A stretch of DNA of 64,000 nucleotides from Thermoanaerobaculia bacterium (GTDB lineage Bacteria; Acidobacteriota; Thermoanaerobaculia; Gp7-AA8), in assembly GCA_963719365.1 (NCBI GenBank), contig OY970380.1, positions 1,038,903 through 1,102,902 of the forward strand, written 5' to 3'. Shown in pieces: positions 1,049 to 39,055 of the stretch. The notes under the pieces were generated by a model that was not told where the DNA came from, searched no databases, and worked only from the letters and a program-made list of their open reading frames with translations. Within the stretch, counting starts at the first letter, position 1. Each line of letters begins with the position of its first letter. A program made the translations under genes and the position numbers.

Positions 1049-1818
1049 CGCGCCACACGCTCATCGACGACATCTTCGCGCCGGGCGGACTCACGATTCT
1101 GTTCCAGCCGATCTTCGAGATCGTGAACGGCGATCCGGTGCTCTTCGCACTCGAAGCGCTGTCGCGCGGACCGAAAGGCTCGAACGTCGAATGCGCGAAT
1201 GTGCTGTTCGAGTACATCCGGCGCAAAGGAAAGGAAACCGAGGTCGATCGTGTGTGCATCGCACGTGCGGTCGCGGCAGCAGCGAGCGTGCCGGGATCGC
1301 CGGCGATCTCCATCAACGTTCATGCGTCGACGCTCGAGCGCGATCCGCATTTCGCCGCGTTTCTTAGCGACGTCTGCAACAGAAACGGCGTGCAGGTCTC
1401 GCGAGTGATTCTCGAGATCGTGGAGCAGCAGAAGTTCTTTGACGAGCGCGCGTTCTTCGCTGCCCTCAGCGACCTGCGCGCACTCGGCGTCCGCATCGCG
1501 CTCGACGACATCGGCATCGGCTACTCCAGCCACCGCATGCTCATCGAAGTCCGTCCTGACCTTTTCAAGATCGATCGTTACTTCATCACCGGAAGCGCGG
1601 AGAACGAGTACTCGCGCGCGGCCATCGAATCGATCGCCCTCCTCGCCACACGGCTCGGCGGCCGCGTCGTCGCCGAGGGCATCGAGGCGCCTGCCGACTT
1701 CGAGACCGTCACCGCGCTCGGCATCGATCTCGTGCAGGGCTACTACTTCGCGCGTCCCTCTTTCCCGGCATCGTTCGGTGCCGCACCCACTCATTACGAA
1801 TCGTCCGCGACTCACTGA
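1045..1818 (+). CDS. EAL-domain c-di-GMP phosphodiesterase (stand-alone EAL)
   Basis: EAL signature residues present: FALEALSRGP, ISINV, ILEIVEQQ, ALDDIGIGYSS, LFKIDRYFI, VVAEGIE, GIDLVQGYYFARP. Confidence 0.85.
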   Translation: MTRHTLIDDIFAPGGLTILFQPIFEIVNGDPVLFALEALSRGPKGSNVECANVLFEYIRRKGKETEVDRVCIARAVAAAASVPGSPAISINVHASTLERDPHFAAFLSDVCNRNGVQVSRVILEIVEQQKFFDERAFFAALSDLRALGVRIALDDIGIGYSSHRMLIEVRPDLFKIDRYFITGSAENEYSRAAIESIALLATRLGGRVVAEGIEAPADFETVTALGIDLVQGYYFARPSFPASFGAAPTHYESSATH

Positions 1819-1833
1819 AAAGGAGCAATGCTC

Positions 1834-2226
1834 ATGAACCGAAAAAAGATTCTGCTTGTCGATGACTCCAGCACGATCCTCATGATGGAGAAGTTCATCC
1901 TGAGGAACGGGCCCTACGATCTCGTCACGGCGACGAACGGCGAGGAGGGCGTGCGGAAGGCTTCCGAACATCTCCCCGATCTCATTCTGCTCGATGTGAT
2001 CATGCCGAAGATGGGCGGCTTCGAAGCCTGCCGGCTGATCCGCAGCGCCGAGGACACGAAGGAAATCCCCATCATCATGGTCACGACGCGCGGTGAAGCA
2101 GCCAACGTCGAAGCCGGATGGGCCAACGGCTGCACCGACTACGTGACCAAGCCGATCAACTCGATCGAGCTGCTCGCGAAAGTCCGCAACTTCCTCGGCG
2201 ACGCTGCCTCGGAGGTGCTCCAGTGA
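1834..2226 (+). CDS. cheY: CheY-like single-domain response regulator
   Basis: KILLVDDSSTILMMEKFIL...DLILLDVIMPKMGG...IIMVTT...YVTKP. AGGAG RBS 8 nt upstream of ATG 1834; an in-frame ATG at 1828 has too short a spacing. Confidence 0.88.
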   Translation: MNRKKILLVDDSSTILMMEKFILRNGPYDLVTATNGEEGVRKASEHLPDLILLDVIMPKMGGFEACRLIRSAEDTKEIPIIMVTTRGEAANVEAGWANGCTDYVTKPINSIELLAKVRNFLGDAASEVLQ

Positions 2227-3078
2227 GCGCGGACGACAAGAACCGCTCGTACGTCACCGTCGTTCGCGAAGAGCTGCAGCAGTACACGCAGGGACTTCTT
2301 CGCGAGAACGAAAAACTCCGGGCCATGGCAACCGCGCTCGAAAGCGACAAGCGCCGCCTGGAGCTGGAGATCATCGAAGCGCGTGTCGTTCTTGATCAGC
2401 AGGAAGAGCTGCGCAAGGCCACGGAAAACTTCGAGGCTGCGCGCGCGGAGATGCTGACCGAGGTTGCGCGGCTCGTGCAGGCGCGCGACGCAGCCACGCG
2501 CGAGCTCGATCTTCTTCGCACTCGCATCGGCGACGTCGAGCGCGAGAACGAAACGTACGCAGCGCAGTACCACCAGATCGAAAACCAGAGCAGCAATCTG
2601 TCGAACCTCTACGTCGCCTCGTACCAGCTTCACGCCAGCGTGGAGCGGGAGACGGTGCTCAGCACGATTCAGGAGATCGTCGTCAATCTGATCGGCTCCG
2701 AGGAAGTGGCCATCTTCGAATTCTACGAGGACGCCCGCGAGTTCCGCCTCTCCTCGTCGTTCGGCGTCGACAGGATGAAGCTGAAGAGCTTCAAAAGCCG
2801 GCAGCGGTCCGATCGGAAAATGCCTCATCGGCGGCGAGGTCTTCGTCAACGATGAAGTCGCCGGTGGTGATGACAAGCTCACCGCGTGCGTGCCGCTGAA
2901 GATCGGCGAGCGCATCATCGGCGCCATCCTCGTCTTCCGTCTGCTCGAGCACAAACAGGGATTGCAGGCCGTCGATCACGAGCTGTTCGAGCTGCTCTCG
3001 ATCCACGCATCGACCGCGCTCTACTGCGCCAATCTTCACAGCCAGGTAGCCAATACGCCGTTGGCGGTGCTGGCGTGA
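2223..3078 (+). pseudogene. Coiled-coil / GAF-domain protein, reading frame interrupted by an apparent +1 frameshift at an A4 run (2793-2796)
   Basis: Frame-0 ORF (GTG 2223, overlapping cheY stop) encodes a coiled-coil N-terminus and the GAF start QEIVVNLIGSEEVAIFEF..SSSFGVD. The frame-1 ORF ending at 3078 encodes the remainder of the GAF domain, GSGPIGKCLIGGEVFVNDE...VPLKIGERIIGAILVFRLL. Removing one A from ttcaaaagcc joins them into one continuous GAF protein of about 285 aa. Confidence 0.55.
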
Positions 3079-3125
3079 GCGCGCTCGAAGCCGGCGGCGA
3101 ACTGCCGATCGACGAAGGCGAGGTG

Positions 3126-3587
3126 ATGAAGCGGGTCTATCTCTATCCGGGACAGATCGTGACTTCGGGCCAGCCGCTCATGGTCAGCACCATCCTCGGG
3201 TCCTGCGTCTCGATCTGTCTCTGGGATCCGGCAGCAAAGATCGGCGGCATCAATCACTATCTGTTGCCCAACAACCCGCTGCCCAACAATTCGAACGGGC
3301 AGTCCGACCTTCGCTACGGCAACACGGCGATCGAACGGCTGATCGAAAAACTCCTCGGGCTCGGCGTGAAGAAGCAGCGGCTCGTGGCCAAGATCGTTGG
3401 CGGCGCGTCGATCCTCACAAGTTTCACCGACACGCGCAAATCGATCGGCGACCAGAACGTCGATGTCGCCCGGACGCTTCTCGCGAAACACGGAATCAAC
3501 GTGAGCGGCGAGCAGACCGGCGGCACGCGCGGGCGAAAACTTCTCTTCCACACCGGCAACGGCTGCGTCTTCAGCAAGGAGATTTGA
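3126..3587 (+). CDS. cheD: Chemoreceptor glutamine deamidase CheD
   Basis: MKRVYLYPGQ...MVSTILGSCVSICLWDPAAKIGGINHYLLP is the CheD signature. About 153 aa. Confidence 0.85.
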   Translation: MKRVYLYPGQIVTSGQPLMVSTILGSCVSICLWDPAAKIGGINHYLLPNNPLPNNSNGQSDLRYGNTAIERLIEKLLGLGVKKQRLVAKIVGGASILTSFTDTRKSIGDQNVDVARTLLAKHGINVSGEQTGGTRGRKLLFHTGNGCVFSKEI

Positions 3588-5239: not shown

Positions 5240-6966
5240 GCTTCAATATCCGCCGCCGGCTCGTCGCCGGATTCCTCACGGTCGTCATCCTCGGCGCCGG
5301 CGTTTGCTTCGCCGTCCTGCAACTGCTCACCACCAGCATCCGCCAGCTCGAGAGCGTCGTCACCGTCTCCGACGCCATTCGCGAACGCGGTCTCAAGCTC
5401 CGCTTCGACATGATGACCATGAGCGACGGCATGCGCGGCTACCTCCTCGATCCGGAGGACAAAAAAGAGCTCCAGCGCAAGCGCGACGCCAACGAGGAGT
5501 TCAACAAGGATGTCCTCGAGATTCAGAGGCTGGCGCCCGCGGGCGAAGTTCGCGACCTGATCGGACGCGCCGCCGAGATGGACTCGCAGTCCGTCAACCG
5601 CCTGGAAGACGAAGTACTGCAGTTAGTCAGCGACAAGAAAATCGAGCTGGCAAAGCAGAAATACATCGCCGAATACCTCCCCGTCCGCCACACGCAGGAA
5701 GAAGTCATCGGCCAGATGGAGAAGGCCACCGACAAGCTGGCAACGCAGGCGTTCACCGCGGCGCAGAGCCGCTATCAAACGGCGCTCATCCTCACCTACG
5801 TGCTGGTCGCGCTCCTCGTGATCATCGGAACGATTCTTTCGATCTTGATCTCCTCGGCCATCGCCAAGCCGGTCGTTCGCATGGCGCAGTCGGTGCGCCG
5901 CGCGGCCAAAGGCGACGTCGGCGATACGCTGGAGTTCGACGATCGCGCCGACGAGCTCGGAGAACTGAGCCGGTCGATGAACGCGATGTACGGGTACCTG
6001 ACGTCGATGGTCGCGACCGCGGAACGCATCGCCGCCGGTGACCTGAGCGTCGACGTGCAGCCCCGTTCCGATGCCGACAGCTTCGGTATCGCATTCTCGA
6101 AGATGGTGGCGCGCCTCGTCGAAGTCATCGGCCAGGTTCGCAGCGCATCCGGCTCACTTTCGTCAGCGGCCTCGCAGGTGTCGGCCACCGCGCAGACCGT
6201 GTCCAGCGGCAACAGCCAGCAGGCCGCGGCGGTGCAGGAGACGACGTCGAGCCTCGAGCAGATGAACGCCTCGATCGCGCAGAACGCGCACAACAGCCGG
6301 CAGACCGAATCGATGGCTGTGAAGGGATCACGCGACGCCGAAGAGACCGGCGCCGCCGTGCAGGAAACGGTGGAAGCGATGAAGTCGATCGCCGCCAAAG
6401 TCTCCATCATCGAAGAGATCGCCTACCAGACCAACCTTCTCGCATTGAACGCCGCAATCGAAGCGGCGCGCGCCGGCGAGCACGGACGCGGCTTCGCCGT
6501 CGTCGCCACCGAAGTCCGCAAGCTGGCGGAGCGCAGCCAGAGCTCTTCGCGCGAGATCGGCGCACTCGCCGCCGCAAGCGTGAAAGGTGCCGACCGCTCC
6601 GGAACGCTGCTGTCCGAGCTCGTGCCGGCGATCCGGCGCACGTCGGAGCTCGTTCAGGAAGTGGCCGCGGCATCGAACGAACAGGCTGGCGGCGTGGCCC
6701 GCATCAATCGTTCGCTGATGCAGGTCGACCAAGTCACCCAACGCAACGCCTCGGCATCCGAAGAGCTGGCCGCAACCGCCGAAGAGATGGCCGCGCAGGC
6801 CGACGGTCTTCAAGGCCTCGTCGAGTTCTTCCGCATCGGAAACGAACAGAAATTGCCGGTAGCGCATAAGCCGGCCGTCGTCGCCGCAAAAGCGCCGATC
6901 GTCGTCAAGCCTTCGAAAGGCAACGGAAACGGCGGCGCGCACTACGCCAACTTCGGGAGCTTCTGA
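5236..6966 (+). CDS. Methyl-accepting chemotaxis protein (two TM, HAMP, MCP signalling domain)
   Basis: Highly conserved MCP core [46 protein letters not shown]-terminal TM, periplasmic region, second TM and HAMP. ATGA overlap with cheA. Confidence 0.9.
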
Positions 6967-6968
6967 AC

Positions 6969-7814
6969 ATGAAACGCTTACTCAGATTCTTCGCCCGAAT
7001 CCTCGCGCGGTTCGCGCCAGGCCGCGCGCGCAAACGCAAACGGTCGGTGCAGTACCTGCTCTGCCTGATCCTCGTGGCGCTGCCGCTCGCAGCACAGACG
7101 CCAACGCCGATCCAGGACAACAGTTTTCTCATCGAGGAGGCATACAACCAGGAAGCTGGGGTCGTGCAGCACATCCAGACGTTCTCGCGCGCCACGCGGG
7201 GCGGCGACTGGGCTTACACGTTCACCGACGAATGGCCGGCACCTGGATTGAAGCATCAGCTCAGCTACACGTTGCCGGTGGCCCAGATCGACGGCGCGCA
7301 CGGTGCCGGAGATATCGCCCTCAACTATCGCTATCAATGGATCGGTGATGGCGACTCGCGCCTGGCCGTCTCGCCGCGAGTAACTGTTCTTCTTCCGACC
7401 GGCAGTTCGCGCCGCGGCCTCGGCAACGGCGGAGTCGGTTGGCAGGTAATGCTTCCTGCCAGCACGGTCCTCTCGCCGTCGCTCGTCGCGCACTGGAACC
7501 TCGGCGCAACAGTGACGCCTTCGAGCAACACACATGCAATCACCGCCGGCCAGAGTTTCGTCTGGCTCGCCAATCCTCGCTTCAACCTGCTCGTCGAGAC
7601 GCTCTGGACTCGAACCTCCGATCGAACGGGACACGAGTCGCAATTCACAGTGAGCCCCGGCGTCCGATGGTCGTATGACCTTCCCCACCATCTCCAGGTC
7701 GTTCCGGGAATCGCCTTGCCAATGACCAATCACGGCGGCGGAAAGTCGCTGTTTCTCTACCTCAGCTTCGAGCACCCATTCAAACAACTACAAGGAGCAA
7801 ACAATGTTCAGTAA
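6969..7814 (+). CDS. Putative outer-membrane beta-barrel protein (MetA-pathway/phenol-degradation-like transporter family, tentative)
   Basis: Signal-peptide-like N-terminus, alternating amphipathic beta-strand pattern, Gly/aromatic-rich sequence with no cytoplasmic motifs. Family assignment from resemblance only. Confidence 0.5.
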   Translation: MKRLLRFFARILARFAPGRARKRKRSVQYLLCLILVALPLAAQTPTPIQDNSFLIEEAYNQEAGVVQHIQTFSRATRGGDWAYTFTDEWPAPGLKHQLSYTLPVAQIDGAHGAGDIALNYRYQWIGDGDSRLAVSPRVTVLLPTGSSRRGLGNGGVGWQVMLPASTVLSPSLVAHWNLGATVTPSSNTHAITAGQSFVWLANPRFNLLVETLWTRTSDRTGHESQFTVSPGVRWSYDLPHHLQVVPGIALPMTNHGGGKSLFLYLSFEHPFKQLQGANNVQ

Positions 7815-8496
7815 CTACAAAACCGTAGCCCGCGCCCTTGCGGTGGCGATCATTTCCATTGCATGCATCACCTCGGCATCCGCGGCAACACTCTCTGCAG
7901 AAACGTGGCGCAAAGCGGTCAACGAGAATGCCGCCAGCCTCAAGAAAGGCGATTACAACAACGCACTCACGACAAGCGATCGCGTCCTCGCCGAAATGGT
8001 CAAATTCCTCGGCGCCGGCACAACCGAAGATGAAATGCTGGCCACTGTATTGACGCAGAAAGCGCTCGCTCAGGCCGGACTCGGAAACATCAACGAAGCT
8101 CTCTGGTATTGGTATATCGCGCAGGAGATTTCGCCGGCCGCGGCGAAGAGCGATCTCTCAGGCTTTGGCGCTCCCGGCGAATTTCTCAAACGGCATCCTT
8201 TTGTGATCGCGGATCCAAATCCTGGTCGCGGAACGACGCCGGCCCGTGTTCTCAAGCAGGTCGTGCCAAGCTTTCCGTCCGGCGCTTCGCGATTTGGCGC
8301 GGGCGATCTCATCGTCCACATCGTCATCGATCGCAATGGCTCGCCAACCTTGCCGCATATCGTTCATCCGCTTCCCGCGCCAACGCTTTCCTTCGTCGCT
8401 CTCGAGGCCCTGAAGCACTGGCAGTTCGCGCCCGCGAAGCAGAACGGCGACTCGGTTTCCTTCCCCTTCAATCTCACGGTTCATTACAAGCTGTAG
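7804..8496 (+). CDS. Secreted protein with TonB C-terminal-like domain
   Basis: Signal peptide (AIISIACITSASA), then C-terminal KQVVPSFPSGASRFGAGDLIVHIVIDRNGSPTL...ALEALKHWQFAPAKQNG resembling the TonB_C fold. Overlaps the preceding OMP gene by 11 bp. Confidence 0.6.
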   Translation: MFSNYKTVARALAVAIISIACITSASAATLSAETWRKAVNENAASLKKGDYNNALTTSDRVLAEMVKFLGAGTTEDEMLATVLTQKALAQAGLGNINEALWYWYIAQEISPAAAKSDLSGFGAPGEFLKRHPFVIADPNPGRGTTPARVLKQVVPSFPSGASRFGAGDLIVHIVIDRNGSPTLPHIVHPLPAPTLSFVALEALKHWQFAPAKQNGDSVSFPFNLTVHYKL

Positions 8497-8518
8497 CCGC
8501 GCGCCGGCCTTGCACAAA

Positions 8519-8549
8519 GACTCGAAAAGCGTGTTCGAATAATCGAAAA
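8519..8549 (+). promoter_or_regulatory. Conserved upstream motif copy 2 (tcgaaaagcgtgttcgaataatcgaaa), upstream of second MCP
   Basis: Matches 505-535 at 26/27 positions. Confidence 0.3.
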
Positions 8550-8732
8550 GCGCGCGCTAGCAAGATCCGCATCGCATCCCCAAGTGATTTCTACCCAATT
8601 AGTTACCTCACATGCCGGAGGTTCGCGCCAAGTGGTCTCCTCGTTGCGATCTTCGGTAGTCAGACAAGCCATTTCCCTTCGTCAATCATCAACCGCCGGA
8701 CCTAACCATTCATCAGGAGCATCGAAAACATC

Positions 8733-10490
8733 ATGTTCACCAACTGGAAAATCGGAAAGAGACTGGGGCTGGCCTTCGGGATCAGCATCATCCTGGTCGC
8801 AGTCGTCGCAGTCGCCGGCTTCTGGGGCCTTTCGCAGGCGGTCCAAACCACGTACGGAATCCTCCATCACGACGCCAAGATGATGGAGCAGGCCTCACAG
8901 GCGCAAGCCAACGGCCTCGGACTGCGCCGCTATGAAAAGGATTACTTCCTCAACATCGGCGACAAAGAAAAAGAAGACGGCTACAAAGACAAATGGAACA
9001 AGGAGCATGCCGACCTCCTCGAGAACATCAACACCCTCGACAAAGTAAGCACGCTTCCCGAGGACAAAGAACTATTGAAGTCGCTTCTGGCGGACATGTC
9101 CACCTACACCATCGGCTTCCAATCGGTGCAAACGCGGATCGACGATAAGAAAATCAAAACTCCCGCCGAAGCGAATGACGCGATGGTGCCGTTCAAAGAC
9201 GAGATCCGGCGCCTCGACACCACTCTTGAGGCCTTTGCGGCCACAAACGTCGAGCGCATGAAAGCCAAAGAGAAGGTCGTGGCCGATGCCGAGGCGCGCA
9301 CCCGCAGCGTCATGTGGGTTGTCTTTGCAATCGGGATCGTTCTCGTTTCCTTTATGACCGTCGCCGTGACCCGCAGCATCACGCAGCCGATTCTCAGTGT
9401 CGTCAAGATTGCTGAGAAACTCGCCGAGGGCCAGACCGACTTCGAGATCGAATCGCGCGGCAAAGACGAAACCGGCGCACTGCTCACCGCAATGAAGCAG
9501 ATGATCGACTCGAATAATGAAATGGTCGCAGCAGCCACCGGCCTCGCCTCCGGAGATCTCTCCGTCCGCGTTACGCCTCGCTCCGATCACGACGCCCTCG
9601 GCACCGCCCTCTCCAACATGATCGAGCGTCTGACCGAGATCATCGGCGAAGTCCGCAGCGGTGCGTCCTCGCTCACCGTCGCCTCGTCGCAGATTTCGCA
9701 AAGCGCGCAGTCGCTCTCGCAGGGCACCAGCGAGCAGGCTTCGTCAGTCGAAGAGACCACCTCGAGTCTCGAAGAGATGAGCGCGTCGATCACGCAGAAC
9801 GCCGAGAACAGCCACCAGATGGAAACGATGGCCGTCAAGGGAACCAAAGACGCCGAGGAGAGTGCGCAGGCCGTCAAGCAATCCGTGGAGGCCATGACTA
9901 AGATCGCCGAGAAGATCTCCATCATCGAAGAGATCGCCTACCAGACCAACCTGCTCGCGCTGAATGCCGCCATCGAAGCAGCGCGCGCCGGCGACCACGG
10001 ACGCGGCTTCGCTGTCGTGGCAACCGAGGTTCGCAAACTCGCCGAGCGCAGCCAGGCTGCGGCAAAAGACATCGGAGCGCTGGCAACATCCAGCGTTGAC
10101 GTCGCCCAGCGTTCCGGCCGTCTGCTCATCGAGCTCGTGCCGACCATCCGGAAGACTGCCGACCTCGTTCGCGAAGTCACCGCTGCGTCGATCGAACAAT
10201 CCGGCGGCGTCGCGCAGATCAATCGCGCCATGACGCTCGTCGATCAGGTCACGCAAAAGAACGCCTCGGCATCCGAAGAGCTGGCCTCGACTGCCGAAGA
10301 GATGTCCTCGCAAGCCGAGGCGCTGCAGCAGACGATCTCGTTCTTCAAGAGCTCCAACGGCGGCCACAACGCCGCGCACCGGCCGCGCGAAACGGCCACT
10401 CCTGTCGCTCCCTTCCGCAACGTTCGTCCGGTCCCCGCCGCCGCGGCCAGCGCCACTCCGGCGACCTACGCCGACTACACGCATTTCTAG
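8733..10490 (+). CDS. Methyl-accepting chemotaxis protein (paralogue of 5236-6966)
   Basis: [45 protein letters not shown]; HAMP; two TM segments. Confidence 0.9.
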
Positions 10491-27150: not shown

Positions 27151-27295
27151 GTTGCCTCCGATGCGCGGCTTGCGTGCGGAGGTTCCGCGTTGCTGCCGGA
27201 ACGCCGTCCGCTGCCCGCGGGAGCGTGGATTATACTCAGCGCATCCGGTCAAACTCGCAGCGAGTGGAGGACTTCCCTGGCACGAGATGAGAGCG

Positions 27296-27846
27296 TCACC
27301 GTCAAAGGCTCGCCGGTTCGCAGCCTGCAGAAATTTCTCGAAGCGGAGCTTTCCGCCGAGCAGCGCACGGCCGCGTTGCAAACGCTTCCCGCCGAGTACG
27401 CCAAACGATTGGGCGGCATCGTGCTGGCCACCGAGACGATCCCCGTCCACATTCTCAATGAGCTGACCGCCGAGGCCGCGAAGGCGAAAGGCGAGCCGGT
27501 GGAACAGTTCGCCCGGCGCGCGGGACGCGAGGGAGCGTCGGATGCAGTCAAAGGCATCTACCGATTCTTCGCGCTGATCCTCACGCCGGCGGCGCTGATC
27601 AGCAAGGCTTCGAGCATGTGGAGCACGCTCTACAACCGCGGGCAGATCCGCATCGAGAATCAGACCGATCGCGGCGCGACGATCAAGCTGCTCGACTTTC
27701 CATCCGAGACCGCCGGCTGCGCGCGCATCACCGGATGGATCGAGCGCATGGCCGAATTAACCGGCGTGAAGGACGTGCGCGTCCAGCAAACGCAGTGCTA
27801 CGCGAAGGGAGCGCCGCATTGCGAGTGGAACGTGAGCTGGAAGTGA
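27296..27846 (+). CDS. Hypothetical protein (possibly V4R/TIGR02265-like small-ligand binding protein); start uncertain
   Basis: Only the 3' third of the long + ORF 26062-27846 lies outside the antisense of tkt. C-terminus has paired Cys (CYAKGAPHCEW). No in-frame ATG; GTG/TTG starts at 27422/27377 are possible. Confidence 0.4.
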
Positions 27847-27897
27847 GGCATCAATGATTGCCTTCGGCGTTATGGGTTCTCGATAGATCAAATCACA

Positions 27898-28213
27898 GTA
27901 GCCCTGTCCAAAACAGGTCACCCTGGAAGGGTGAATGACGGTAGCCGGTGGCCGCGCCGGAGGTGCTGCCACCGGTAACAGTCGCGGCAAAGCAGCACCC
28001 CGGAGGGGGTGCGTGAAGAGCCACGATCAGCCTATCTGTGAGGAGCAAGGCGCCTCGGAGAGAAGGCCTTTCGACGCAGTCTTTTTGAATGTTCACGCAC
28101 CCCTGCCGGGGTGCTTTGAATGCGCGCGATTGTTCCGGTGGCAGCGCCTCCGGCGCGGCCACCGGCTACCTTCATTCACCCTTCCAGGGTGACCTGTTTT
28201 GGACGGGGCTACT
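27898..28213. mobile_element. MITE-like element (about 316 bp) with about 75-bp terminal inverted repeats and an internal nested palindrome
   Basis: Left arm ccctgtccaaaacaggtcaccctggaagggtgaatgacggtagccggtggccgcgccggaggtgctgccaccgg is about 96% identical to the reverse complement of 28135-28210. Inner pair gcaccccggagggggtgcgtg / cacgcacccctgccggggtgc. No transposase ORF. Confidence 0.5.
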
Positions 28214-29549
28214 TCGCCGAACGATGCCGCGAGAGATCGTTCACGTGAATCGTGACCGGCTGCGTTGCCGTCAGAGTGCCGCTCGTCAGCGTGACCTGGA
28301 ATTGATAGGCACCGGGCGTCGTGCGAGACGTCGTGTTGGCGGTGACTCGAATGGACCCGCCGGCGGCGACGGACGCCGCATCCGCGGTAATCGTTCCGTC
28401 AAAACCGCTCGGAGGCTGCACCGCGACCGCCGCCGTTCCACTAAATCCATTGACGGCGACGAGCTGATAGTTGGCGGCGATCGATGCTCCGCGGCTGACC
28501 GTGAGAGATGCCGGACCGGAAATAGCGATGCTGGCCGCAGGCGCGGGTGGTGCCGCGGCGCCGGACGAGCTCGAACCGCGGATCACGTTCCAGAGCGCGG
28601 GATCTTCGACGCCGGCGCTCCAGGCGGCGAAGCCGGCAATGGACGCGTGCCGCTCTTTCAGCAATTGCACTTTCTTCGCGTAGCTCGCCGCATCCTGGAA
28701 AAACACGGTGTGACCGCTGTAAGAGAACGTTGCTTCGCCGTTGGCGTCATGCGAGATCGTCGCGCCGTTGCTCTGCGCCAATTGCATGGCCGCGGCGTAG
28801 GTCAGGTCTGTGGCGGTGCCTGCGCTCCAATCGTATCCGTACCAGGGCAGCGCGATCATGATGCGATCGTTGGGAATGACGTTTTGCGCGTATGTGGCCA
28901 CGCGGTCGATCCAATCGAGCGGCGCGATAGGACCCGGCGCGCTGCCCGAATAGCTGTAGTCGTACGCCATGATTTTCACGGAGTCGGCAATGCGGCCGAT
29001 TGCCGGCCAATCTTCGCCACCCGGACCATTCCAGTTGTCTTTCTCTCCGGTCTTTGCGTAGACGGTGACGGAGAGCTTCTTGTTCGCCGCGTGGAGTTTT
29101 TGTCCGAGGGTCGTCAGAAAAGCCGTGAAGTTGTCGCGAGACGCCGTCGGGACACGTTCGTAGTCGATATCGATCCCGTCGAACGCCTGCGCGATCGCGA
29201 GCTGCGAGATCGCTGCGGCCGACGATTCGCGCGACGCTGGCGACGCGAGCATAGCGGCTGCTGCATTGCCGTCGAAACTGCCATTGACGATGTTCTGTAC
29301 GGTCGGGATCAGCAGCGTCCCGGTCATCGACGATCGCCATGACGCGTTTTCTGCGTTCCAGTTCTTCAGCGGCGTTCCATCGGCGTTCCAGCTATACCAG
29401 ACGGGATTCGTTTCGCTGAGCGCGCCGAGGTTGGATTGGAGAGACTTGAGGGCATCGGCATTCCAGGGCGGAATCCAGGCCGACTCCTGGTAGGCGAACG
29501 CTGAAGCGGCAAATGAGAACAGCAACGCAGCGATCGCGGCAATACGCAT
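28209..29549 (-). CDS. Secreted glycoside hydrolase family 18 (chitinase-like) with C-terminal Ig-like/beta-sandwich region
   Basis: Signal peptide; GH18 catalytic motif DGIDIDYE; C-terminal Ala/Ser/Thr-rich beta domain. Stop codon lies inside the right arm of the MITE-like element. Confidence 0.8.
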   Translation of the reverse strand: MRIAAIAALLFSFAASAFAYQESAWIPPWNADALKSLQSNLGALSETNPVWYSWNADGTPLKNWNAENASWRSSMTGTLLIPTVQNIVNGSFDGNAAAAMLASPASRESSAAAISQLAIAQAFDGIDIDYERVPTASRDNFTAFLTTLGQKLHAANKKLSVTVYAKTGEKDNWNGPGGEDWPAIGRIADSVKIMAYDYSYSGSAPGPIAPLDWIDRVATYAQNVIPNDRIMIALPWYGYDWSAGTATDLTYAAAMQLAQSNGATISHDANGEATFSYSGHTVFFQDAASYAKKVQLLKERHASIAGFAAWSAGVEDPALWNVIRGSSSSGAAAPPAPAASIAISGPASLTVSRGASIAANYQLVAVNGFSGTAAVAVQPPSGFDGTITADAASVAAGGSIRVTANTTSRTTPGAYQFQVTLTSGTLTATQPVTIHVNDLSRHRSAK

Positions 29550-29758
29550 CAGGCTCCTTCGCCCTGCGATCCGCTATGCCGTTCTCCAATGCGGAGATAA
29601 ACGTCCCAAAATCACGTTCGGCAGTCCAGCCGTCTGATGTCAGACCTGAGACTTTGCGTCCTCCCGTCGCCGGAAGTATGCCTTTGTCGCGCGATCGCGG
29701 CTTTTTAACGACTCACAATAATAGATCCCGCGCGCTGGTCATTCCAGCTCGGCCATAA

Positions 29759-29789
29759 ACAAAAAGAGCGGCCTCAGCCGCTCTTCTGA
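29759..29789 (-). terminator. Rho-independent terminator downstream of the KaiC-like gene
   Basis: Minus-strand reading agagcggc-tgag-gccgctct followed by TTTTTGTTT. A second hairpin agctcgctcg-tttca-agcgagct lies at 29797-29820. Confidence 0.5.
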
Positions 29790-29828
29790 TGCACCAGCTC
29801 GCTCGTTTCAAGCGAGCTCTTGGCTCGA

Positions 29829-38956: not shown

Positions 38957-38964
38957 GCAGGAAG

Positions 38965-39055
38965 GGAGTGGGGAGTAGGGTGTGGGGGGTGGGAGCTGGA
39001 TCTCAAGTCCTCCCACTCCCCACTCCCTACTCCCTACTCCCCACTCCCTTCGATT
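38965..39055. repeat. GGGGAGT-heptamer-based imperfect palindrome, second copy
   Basis: gggagtggggagtagggtgtggggggtgggag-ctggatctcaagtc-ctcccactccccactccctactccctactccccactccc. Confidence 0.5.

Follow-up and report, generated by a model that had tools for sequence, protein, structure and literature searches.

A V4R-like gene, which ends at 27846, and a GH18 gene on the minus strand (28209-29549 in the ORF list) converge in the window, the 64,000-nucleotide stretch of Thermoanaerobaculia DNA that was analyzed. Between them, at the convergent intergenic site that a first-pass annotation of this DNA had pointed out, lies a palindromic element of 317 bp (27897..28213, not assigned to a strand), delimited by its inverted repeats, its folding z-scores and its related copies, in which two inverted multi-hairpin arms surround a 74-nt core. 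A repeat search of the window places the inverted-repeat arms at 27897-27975 and 28135-28213; they are 79 nt long, 96% complementary and 159 nt apart, and an inner inverted pair of 24 nt with 92% complementarity is found at 27994-28017 and 28092-28115. The palindrome of about 316 bp described by the annotation, with terminal inverted repeats of about 75 bp and about 96% identity and with a second inner pair, is therefore real. No other inverted repeat in the 64-kb window comes near it in length. A 37-mer of the arm occurs at two sites of the window, both in the palindrome, while 0 are expected from shuffles, and within the window alone the element is present in one copy. The same peptide, GAATGY.HSPFQGDLFWTGLL, is read on both strands in the ORF list as well as in a six-frame translation, as had been observed before, and the element is indeed a non-coding, gene-less copy. 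The folding that the annotation had proposed as a check was carried out for both strands. The plus strand folds to -275 kcal/mol against a shuffle mean of about -134 (z = -26) and the minus strand to -262 kcal/mol against about -129 (z = -25), so that both are far more stable than their shuffles, and each strand forms a single near-continuous hairpin.

The TAG stop codon of the GH18 gene (28209..28211, minus strand) falls within the terminal 5 nt of the right arm, and the gene thus terminates inside the element, as had been claimed. The further claim that the element provides this stop codon did not hold. The orthologues in contigs L005, L006 and L007, where the element is absent, finish at the same codon, with ...SAK/R-TAG; every close GH18 orthologue (79-91% identity) has 446 aa. 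The DNA homology between the window and L005 stops exactly after the GH18 TAG and restarts exactly after the stop of the V4R-like gene. Because the orthologues without the element share the TAG and the homology ends after it, the stop codon is ancestral and the element only abuts or overlaps it. The window copy is symmetric, and its symmetry includes 5 extra complementary nt (AGTAG/CTACT) that overlap this stop. The consequence for GH18 is small: the protein is unchanged, and the mRNA gains a very stable hairpin from the stop codon on.

The intergenic region is completely different in L005, L006 and L007, and no clean empty site was obtained from them. The spot appears to be an insertion hot spot. 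In L005, a PhdYeFM-type toxin-antitoxin pair (7352-8079) is located where the window has 50 nt and the element. The contig of the closest GH18 orthologue, L007, breaks off 97 bp past the stop, and its end is a core fragment of 30 nt (6193-6222) in the opposite orientation and without arms. Several models of the ends and the target (a TA duplication, insertion between AGT and ACT, overlap with TAG) were considered and rejected, each being supported by at most one copy. Elsewhere in the window, the GH18 gene has a c-di-GMP-I riboswitch aptamer in its 5' leader (29617-29692, minus strand; 59 bits with a gathering score of 35), which is the only gathering-level Rfam match in the window; the glycoside hydrolase is therefore probably under c-di-GMP control. 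A second inverted repeat is located at 38961-39051, with 33-nt arms that are 91% complementary, 25 nt apart, and G-rich (GAAGGGAGTGGGGAGTAGGG...) on one side and C-rich on the other.

The two arms share one ordered architecture. On the plus strand, a terminal module CCTGTCCAAAACAGG (27903..27917; mirror CCTGTTTTGGACGGG at 28193-28207), recognized by its sequence and by comparing the ends across copies, is followed by hairpin A (27918..27934; mirror 28176-28192) with the sequence TCACCC-TGGA-AGGGTGA, for which paired changes are seen across arms. The family-wide end motif is GCYGTCCAAAACAG, and the terminal module of the window type is GTCCAAAACAGG. The tetranucleotide GTAG (27941..27944; mirror CTAC at 28166-28169), located from the sequence and the arm alignment, stands directly 5' of the foot of hairpin B (27945..27975; mirror 28135-28165). 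The palindrome of hairpin B, CCGGTGGCCGCGCC-GGAG-GTGCTGCCACCGG, is imperfect and has an internal mismatch that is conserved. Hairpin C (27995..28012; mirror 28097-28114) reads GCACCCC-GGAG-GGGGTGC and is followed by GTGAA; it corresponds to the inner inverted pair at 27994-28017 and 28092-28115.

In an alignment of 21 arms, the order is hairpin A, linker, GTAG, imperfect hairpin B, spacer, hairpin C and GTGAA. The consensus of hairpin A is CACCC...GGGTG and that of the linker is (A/G)TGAnG; hairpin B follows CCGGTGGCC.CGCC-GGAG-G.G..GCCACCGG and hairpin C follows GCACCCCGGCAGGGGTGC, with a variable spacer between B and C. Across hairpins A, B and C of these arms, 96.7% of the cells are paired, compared with 38-55% in slid controls. 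Compensatory change occurs at 4 pairs, with 24 cells against 9.2 +/- 2.0 in shuffles. Both sides have changed in 3 of the 7 pairs of hairpin A, with G-C/U-A at its foot and C-G/G-C/U-A within it, and a G-C/A-U change is found in hairpin B. In the latter, 99.2% of the cells are paired and pair 46-58 changes from G-C to A-U in 8 arms; its internal C/T mismatch (columns 45/59) was read from the alignment, outside the pair scoring. Hairpin C hardly varies and is thus uninformative for covariation. As the 21 arms were collected with an anchor containing GTAG, the invariance of this tetranucleotide is partly by construction. GTAG is also found in the Y1 loci L018 and L014, and L017 has TTAG.

A covariance model of the arm, called R1, has only the two arms as matches in the 64-kb window. 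The left arm (27910..28024, plus strand) scores 120.3 bits with E 3.8e-27 over model positions 1-115, and the right arm (28085..28200, minus strand) scores 125 bits with E 2.9e-28 for the same architecture. When the span of the right arm is read on the plus strand, R1 gives only 26 bits. For either arm, the score drops by about 100 bits on the reverse strand, and we therefore regard the arms as polar units and not as simple palindromes.

The arm belongs to a dispersed repeat family. Of the four genome matches to an exact 20-mer from it, three are true copies, so that one Thermoanaerobaculia MAG has at least three, each on a contig of its own (L002, L003 and L004) and with 93-95% identity to the window copy. 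The remaining match, in a member of the Polyangiaceae (L001), was rejected as a chance match within coding sequence. With a broader arm pattern, soil metagenomes yielded a copy in L011 that is 93% identical over 411 bp, a contig that ends within a copy (L013), a divergent copy in L010 and a cluster of partial arms in L009 that resembles a mosaic REP array; another divergent copy is present in L008. Since the L010 contig is a mirror image of itself (1400-3330, around position 2365), its two copies are probably one, duplicated by an assembly artefact, and were taken as one. The metagenome match L012 was again a chance match within coding sequence, and the arm pattern found no match in viral contigs. 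All copies seen are intergenic and at unrelated loci. The first-pass annotation had named a single copy without target-site duplication, homologues or transcript as the finding that would count against it; homologous copies in fact exist at unrelated loci in other genomes. The window copy is short at both ends. Its closest relatives are short at one end and about 100 bp longer at the other, and two of them have internal deletions, so that the copies are mosaic.

Further repeats surround several copies. Short-repeat arrays of the TGTTGAATG type flank the copy in L002 (7240-7304 and 7714-7790) and are inverted on the two sides; the copies in L004 (400-460 and 823-870) and L011 (615-645 and 1047-1061) have likewise inverted arrays around them. 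The element may have inserted into a palindromic repeat that was already there, or the arrays could be an outer layer of the element. Tandem arrays adjoin the divergent copies in L008 (5890-6460, 43-bp units) and L009 (300-420 and 920-1050, units of about 20 bp). A long palindrome of a different family, GCGCGAAGCGC...GGTGGCCGCAGCCACC..., is located at 367-510 of L008, and GCGCGAAGCGC-like motifs flank copies in L003 and L014.

The central core (28018..28091, 74 nt) sits where relatives that carry a gene have a Y1 transposase gene. It is conserved among the closest copies only and differs between subfamilies, and its pattern GATCAGCCTATCNGTGAGGAGCAA had no exact match in the metagenome or viral collections. 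A part of the core (28032-28088) is weakly similar to Rfam Cyano-1 (17.1 bits, E 2.2), with UGUGAGGAGC in common. In addition, the core contains GAGGAGCAA, and the Y1 gene of L018 has a similar sequence in its ribosome-binding region. The core may be a remnant of the 5' region of a transposase gene.

When the concatenated six-frame peptides of the element were used as a query, there was one weak match, P0121. This is a spurious ORF of 359 aa across the divergent copy in contig L008, near a gene for a Y1/HUH transposase (8649-9095). The gene encodes 148 aa and matches Pfam Y1_Tnp with 83 bits and NCBIfam transpos_IS200 with 63.2 bits (cutoff 55); the nearest solved structures of the protein are the TnpA proteins of ISDra2 and IS608. 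The gene lies exactly between an arm at 8437-8538 and another at 9096-9198; over a stretch of 58 nt, the two arms show 98% complementarity. The window arms show 79-81% identity to these flanks over 90-120 nt, with E from 1e-17 to 1e-22. Homologues of the Y1 protein are numerous, and 5 loci beyond L008 were examined. Full-length inverted arms bracket the Y1 gene in five of the six loci (L008, L015, L016, L017 and L018), a REPtron-type arrangement that is thus shown for genomes other than that of the window. In L015 the gene is surrounded by 99-nt arms that are 89% complementary, with the same bracket in L016, and in L018, an Acidobacteriota MAG, the arms are 98 nt long and 89% complementary. 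The same hairpin B and hairpin C modules are found in L017, a complete Verrucomicrobiota genome. The sixth locus, L014 (Thermoanaerobaculia), has clustered, partly related arms, with hairpin A and GGGTAGCCGGTGG in common. L017 and L018 were outside the building set of R1, and the model nevertheless gives 62.5 and 43 bits on the Y1 flanks of L017 and 57 and 56.9 bits on those of L018, and in both loci the matches are full-length, with the two flanks of the gene matching on opposite strands. In the Y1 loci, hairpin C directly borders the transposase gene or its 5'UTR. A tblastn search found no Y1 gene in the 64-kb window.

The six Y1 proteins read DHVH ... WQEGY ... Y(I/V)xxQE(E/R)(H/Q)H. They are without the Y---NP motif and thus fall outside the RAYTs, class 2 of Quentin et al.; E. 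coli TnpA-REP gave no match to the partner proteins even at E <= 10. With 148 aa, DHVH, WQ and Y---Q--HH, they agree with TnpA-Y1 subclass 1.2.

Since homologous arms also flank a Y1/HUH gene in related soil bacteria, we interpret the element as a miniature mobile element of the REP/REPIN type. We consider it probable that it is a non-autonomous REPIN-like doublet with GTAG-tagged, REP-like arms, belonging to the family of a small, IS200-like Y1/HUH transposase that acts on single-stranded DNA. This reading draws on the family of related copies, the arm architecture, the conservation of the structure and the association of the arms with Y1 genes in other genomes. The symmetry of the window copy, with asymmetric closest relatives, and the oversized arms and B-B distance count against it. 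So do the single copy and the absence of a Y1 gene in the 64-kb window, the complete difference of the orthologous intergenic regions, which gave neither a clean empty site nor a target motif, and a partner enzyme that does not have the RAYT signature. By analogy with IS200/IS605 and TnpA-REP, we infer that a Y1 enzyme which recognizes GTAG and hairpin B mobilizes the element in trans. Local hairpins would form when the DNA is single-stranded, for example in the lagging-strand template. A Y1 enzyme encoded elsewhere in the genome would then bind the unit of GTAG and hairpin B, and by cutting and rejoining single strands it would excise and reinsert the doublet or copy it. At its present site, the element would be transcribed into the 3' ends of the two convergent genes as a very stable hairpin, and this 3'-UTR hairpin may stabilize the mRNAs or act as a weak bidirectional terminator.

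The same location could also be read in terms of RNA alone, with the element as an immobile relic that is now a giant shared 3'-UTR hairpin and works as a terminator, an mRNA stabilizer or a ribosome block at the GH18 stop. It lies between the convergent V4R-like and GH18 genes, both of its strands fold to about -260 to -275 kcal/mol, and the hairpin begins within the GH18 stop codon. A terminator scan flagged hairpin A followed outward by CCTGTTTTGG at 28176-28192 (plus strand) and 27934-27918 (minus strand), and terminator-like sites in the region scanned number 6 against 2.4 +/- 1.5 expected. However, the T-run at the outward ends is short, the U-tract having 4 consecutive T; terminator function leaves unexplained why these modules are also found in clusters and on both sides of a transposase gene; and the orthologous loci do without the element. 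We find it unlikely that the element is such a feature only. A role at the RNA level is compatible with the REPIN-like doublet, as a secondary effect and not as an alternative origin. On the other hand, strong conservation of structure with some covariation might be expected of a gene for a large structured ncRNA, which the first-pass annotation had named as an alternative, or of a pair of small RNAs like Acido-Lenti-1, and the link to the transposase would then be incidental. One arm is weakly similar to Acido-Lenti-1 (16.7 bits, E 0.17-0.33), as the core is to Cyano-1. Nevertheless, nothing in the element reaches the gathering score in the Rfam scan, so that the alternative lacks Rfam support at this level; the match to RF01687 (Acido-Lenti-1) at 28150-28191 is below the gathering score of 37, and the plant microRNA models MIR1858 and MIR1223, which were far below gathering, merely reflect long GC-rich hairpins. 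No promoter-like site was found in 27200-29800, equal folding of both strands is expected of a DNA palindrome, and the core differs between subfamilies. The bracketing of the Y1 gene by full-length inverted arms in five of the six loci, with related clusters in the sixth, also speaks against an RNA gene, and so do the bona fide Acido-Lenti-1 matches in L015, which form an inverted GTAG dimer. An RNA gene of either kind seems to us quite improbable.

The long terminal inverted repeats, the small size and the lack of coding capacity would fit a classical MITE, that is, a deletion derivative of an IS with a DDE transposase that moves by cut-and-paste with target-site duplication, and the copies in L002 and L004 have direct repeats of 10-12 bp next to them. 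These repeats were rejected as target duplications because the flanks there are the TGTTGAATG-type short-repeat arrays. The check for a target-site duplication that the annotation had suggested found none at the window copy (flanks ...CACAGT and ACTTCG...). Moreover, the arms are polar and internally structured, unlike simple terminal inverted repeats, and the only gene found between homologous arms is that of the Y1/HUH transposase. We give a DDE-type origin hardly any credence. From the earlier description as a MITE-like or non-autonomous element, the non-coding, non-autonomous dispersed repeat stands, and the classical MITE class is abandoned, as the window copy has no target-site duplication and the transposase is Y1 and not DDE.

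REP/REPIN elements with their RAYTs are the standard example of a vertically inherited, domesticated partnership between a transposase and a repeat, with most known cases in Proteobacteria and Cyanobacteria. If the REPIN-like reading is correct, the element would extend the REP/REPIN principle to the Thermoanaerobaculia in the Acidobacteriota, with much larger composite arms and a different Y1 branch. There are also practical consequences. Such repeats break assemblies, as in L013 and L007, which end inside a copy and in the 30-nt core fragment, respectively; they generate spurious ORFs, for example the 359-aa P0121, and can be mistaken for sRNA genes.

The comparison with known systems begins with the REPs, in which TnpA-REP uses GTAG and the imperfect hairpin 3' of it as recognition and guide unit; the E. 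coli enzyme needs GTAG and the hairpin to bind single-stranded DNA and cut it at CT (PMC3479197). GTAG REPs are predominantly arranged as inverted dimers that have GTAG on the outside and can fold as one large stem-loop; most are located downstream of genes, and in REPtrons they flank Y1 genes (PMC3733652). The present element likewise has GTAG and an imperfect hairpin, and its arms are inverted and form one long hairpin. It has in common with REPINs and REPtrons (Bertels & Rainey 2011, PMC3116915; Di Nocera et al. 2013, PMC3733652; Messing et al. 2012, PMC3479197) the imperfect palindrome with GTAG at its 5' foot, the inverted pair with GTAG outside, the single long hairpin, the intergenic position downstream of genes, the inverted units that flank a Y1/HUH gene, and mosaic and clustered variants, here in L009. 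The differences are in size and in the enzyme. A REP measures 20-40 nt, while the arm of the element has about 115 nt with three hairpins and a terminal module and is too large by this measure; the spacers of REP dimers are mostly 20-100 nt, compared with 159 nt from B to B in the element; and the associated enzyme, unlike the partner of REPINs, is not a class-2 RAYT.

Acido-Lenti-1 (RF01687; Weinberg et al. 2010, PMC2864571), which the catalogue lists as an sRNA, consists of a hairpin, CUA(C), a linker of about 8-12 nt and a second hairpin. This layout is the complement of hairpin A, linker, GTAG and hairpin B in the arm, and the motif is without hairpin C and the terminal module. Two Acido-Lenti-1 matches in L015 (182-386; 60 and 46.6 bits) are inverted with GTAG outside, in the layout hairpin A, linker, GTAG, hairpin B ... 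B', CTAC, linker, A'. From this inverted GTAG dimer, the catalogued sRNA motif looks like a REP-like DNA repeat.

Some Y1 genes, including a group in Acidobacteria, are flanked by long inverted repeats and are called TIRtrons (PMC3733652). TIRtrons and their TIRYTs share with the present family a tyrosine transposase gene and long inverted repeats, some of which are self-complementary, and their repeats likewise form moderately abundant families with dimers or clusters, including in Acidobacteria (PMC3733652). However, the TIRYTs carry the RAYT-type Y...NPV (supplement alignment, PMC3733652), which the Y1 proteins here do not, and the TIRtron repeats are described as unrelated to GTAG REPs (PMC3733652), while the arms here hold a GTAG-tagged hairpin. 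With IS200/IS605 elements and their PATEs, the common features are hairpin-bearing ends and an IS200-like transposase, which passes the NCBIfam transpos_IS200 cutoff. The ends of IS200/IS605 elements have two different subterminal hairpins on one strand and no terminal inverted repeat. The gene-carrying units here differ from this pattern in that their ends are inverted repeats with 89-98% complementarity.

For TnpA-Y1 subclass 1.2, a median length of 148 aa and the motifs DH[IV]H, WQ and YIKNQKEHH have been reported (Quentin et al. 2018, PMC6006769, Table 1). The subclass was described as an orphan group of IS200-like proteins that has no known role and is low-copy, not IS-like, without REPs or typical IS200 ends, and mostly from Cyanobacteria and Bacteroidetes (PMC6006769). 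A limited full-text search found no later papers that discuss it, and a DNA partner of this Y1 branch has been previously unreported. We tentatively propose, with slightly less credence than we would give to the opposite, that subclass 1.2 is the partner of widespread polar, three-hairpin GTAG arms in Acidobacteriota and Verrucomicrobiota, that these arms spawn large REPIN-like doublets, and that Acido-Lenti-1 is the same kind of DNA repeat. If this is true, there would be a second, independent lineage of REP-mobilizing Y1 enzymes beside the RAYTs. In contrast to the published description of the subclass as being without REPs, structured arms are found at the gene in all six loci examined here, from Acidobacteriota and Verrucomicrobiota.
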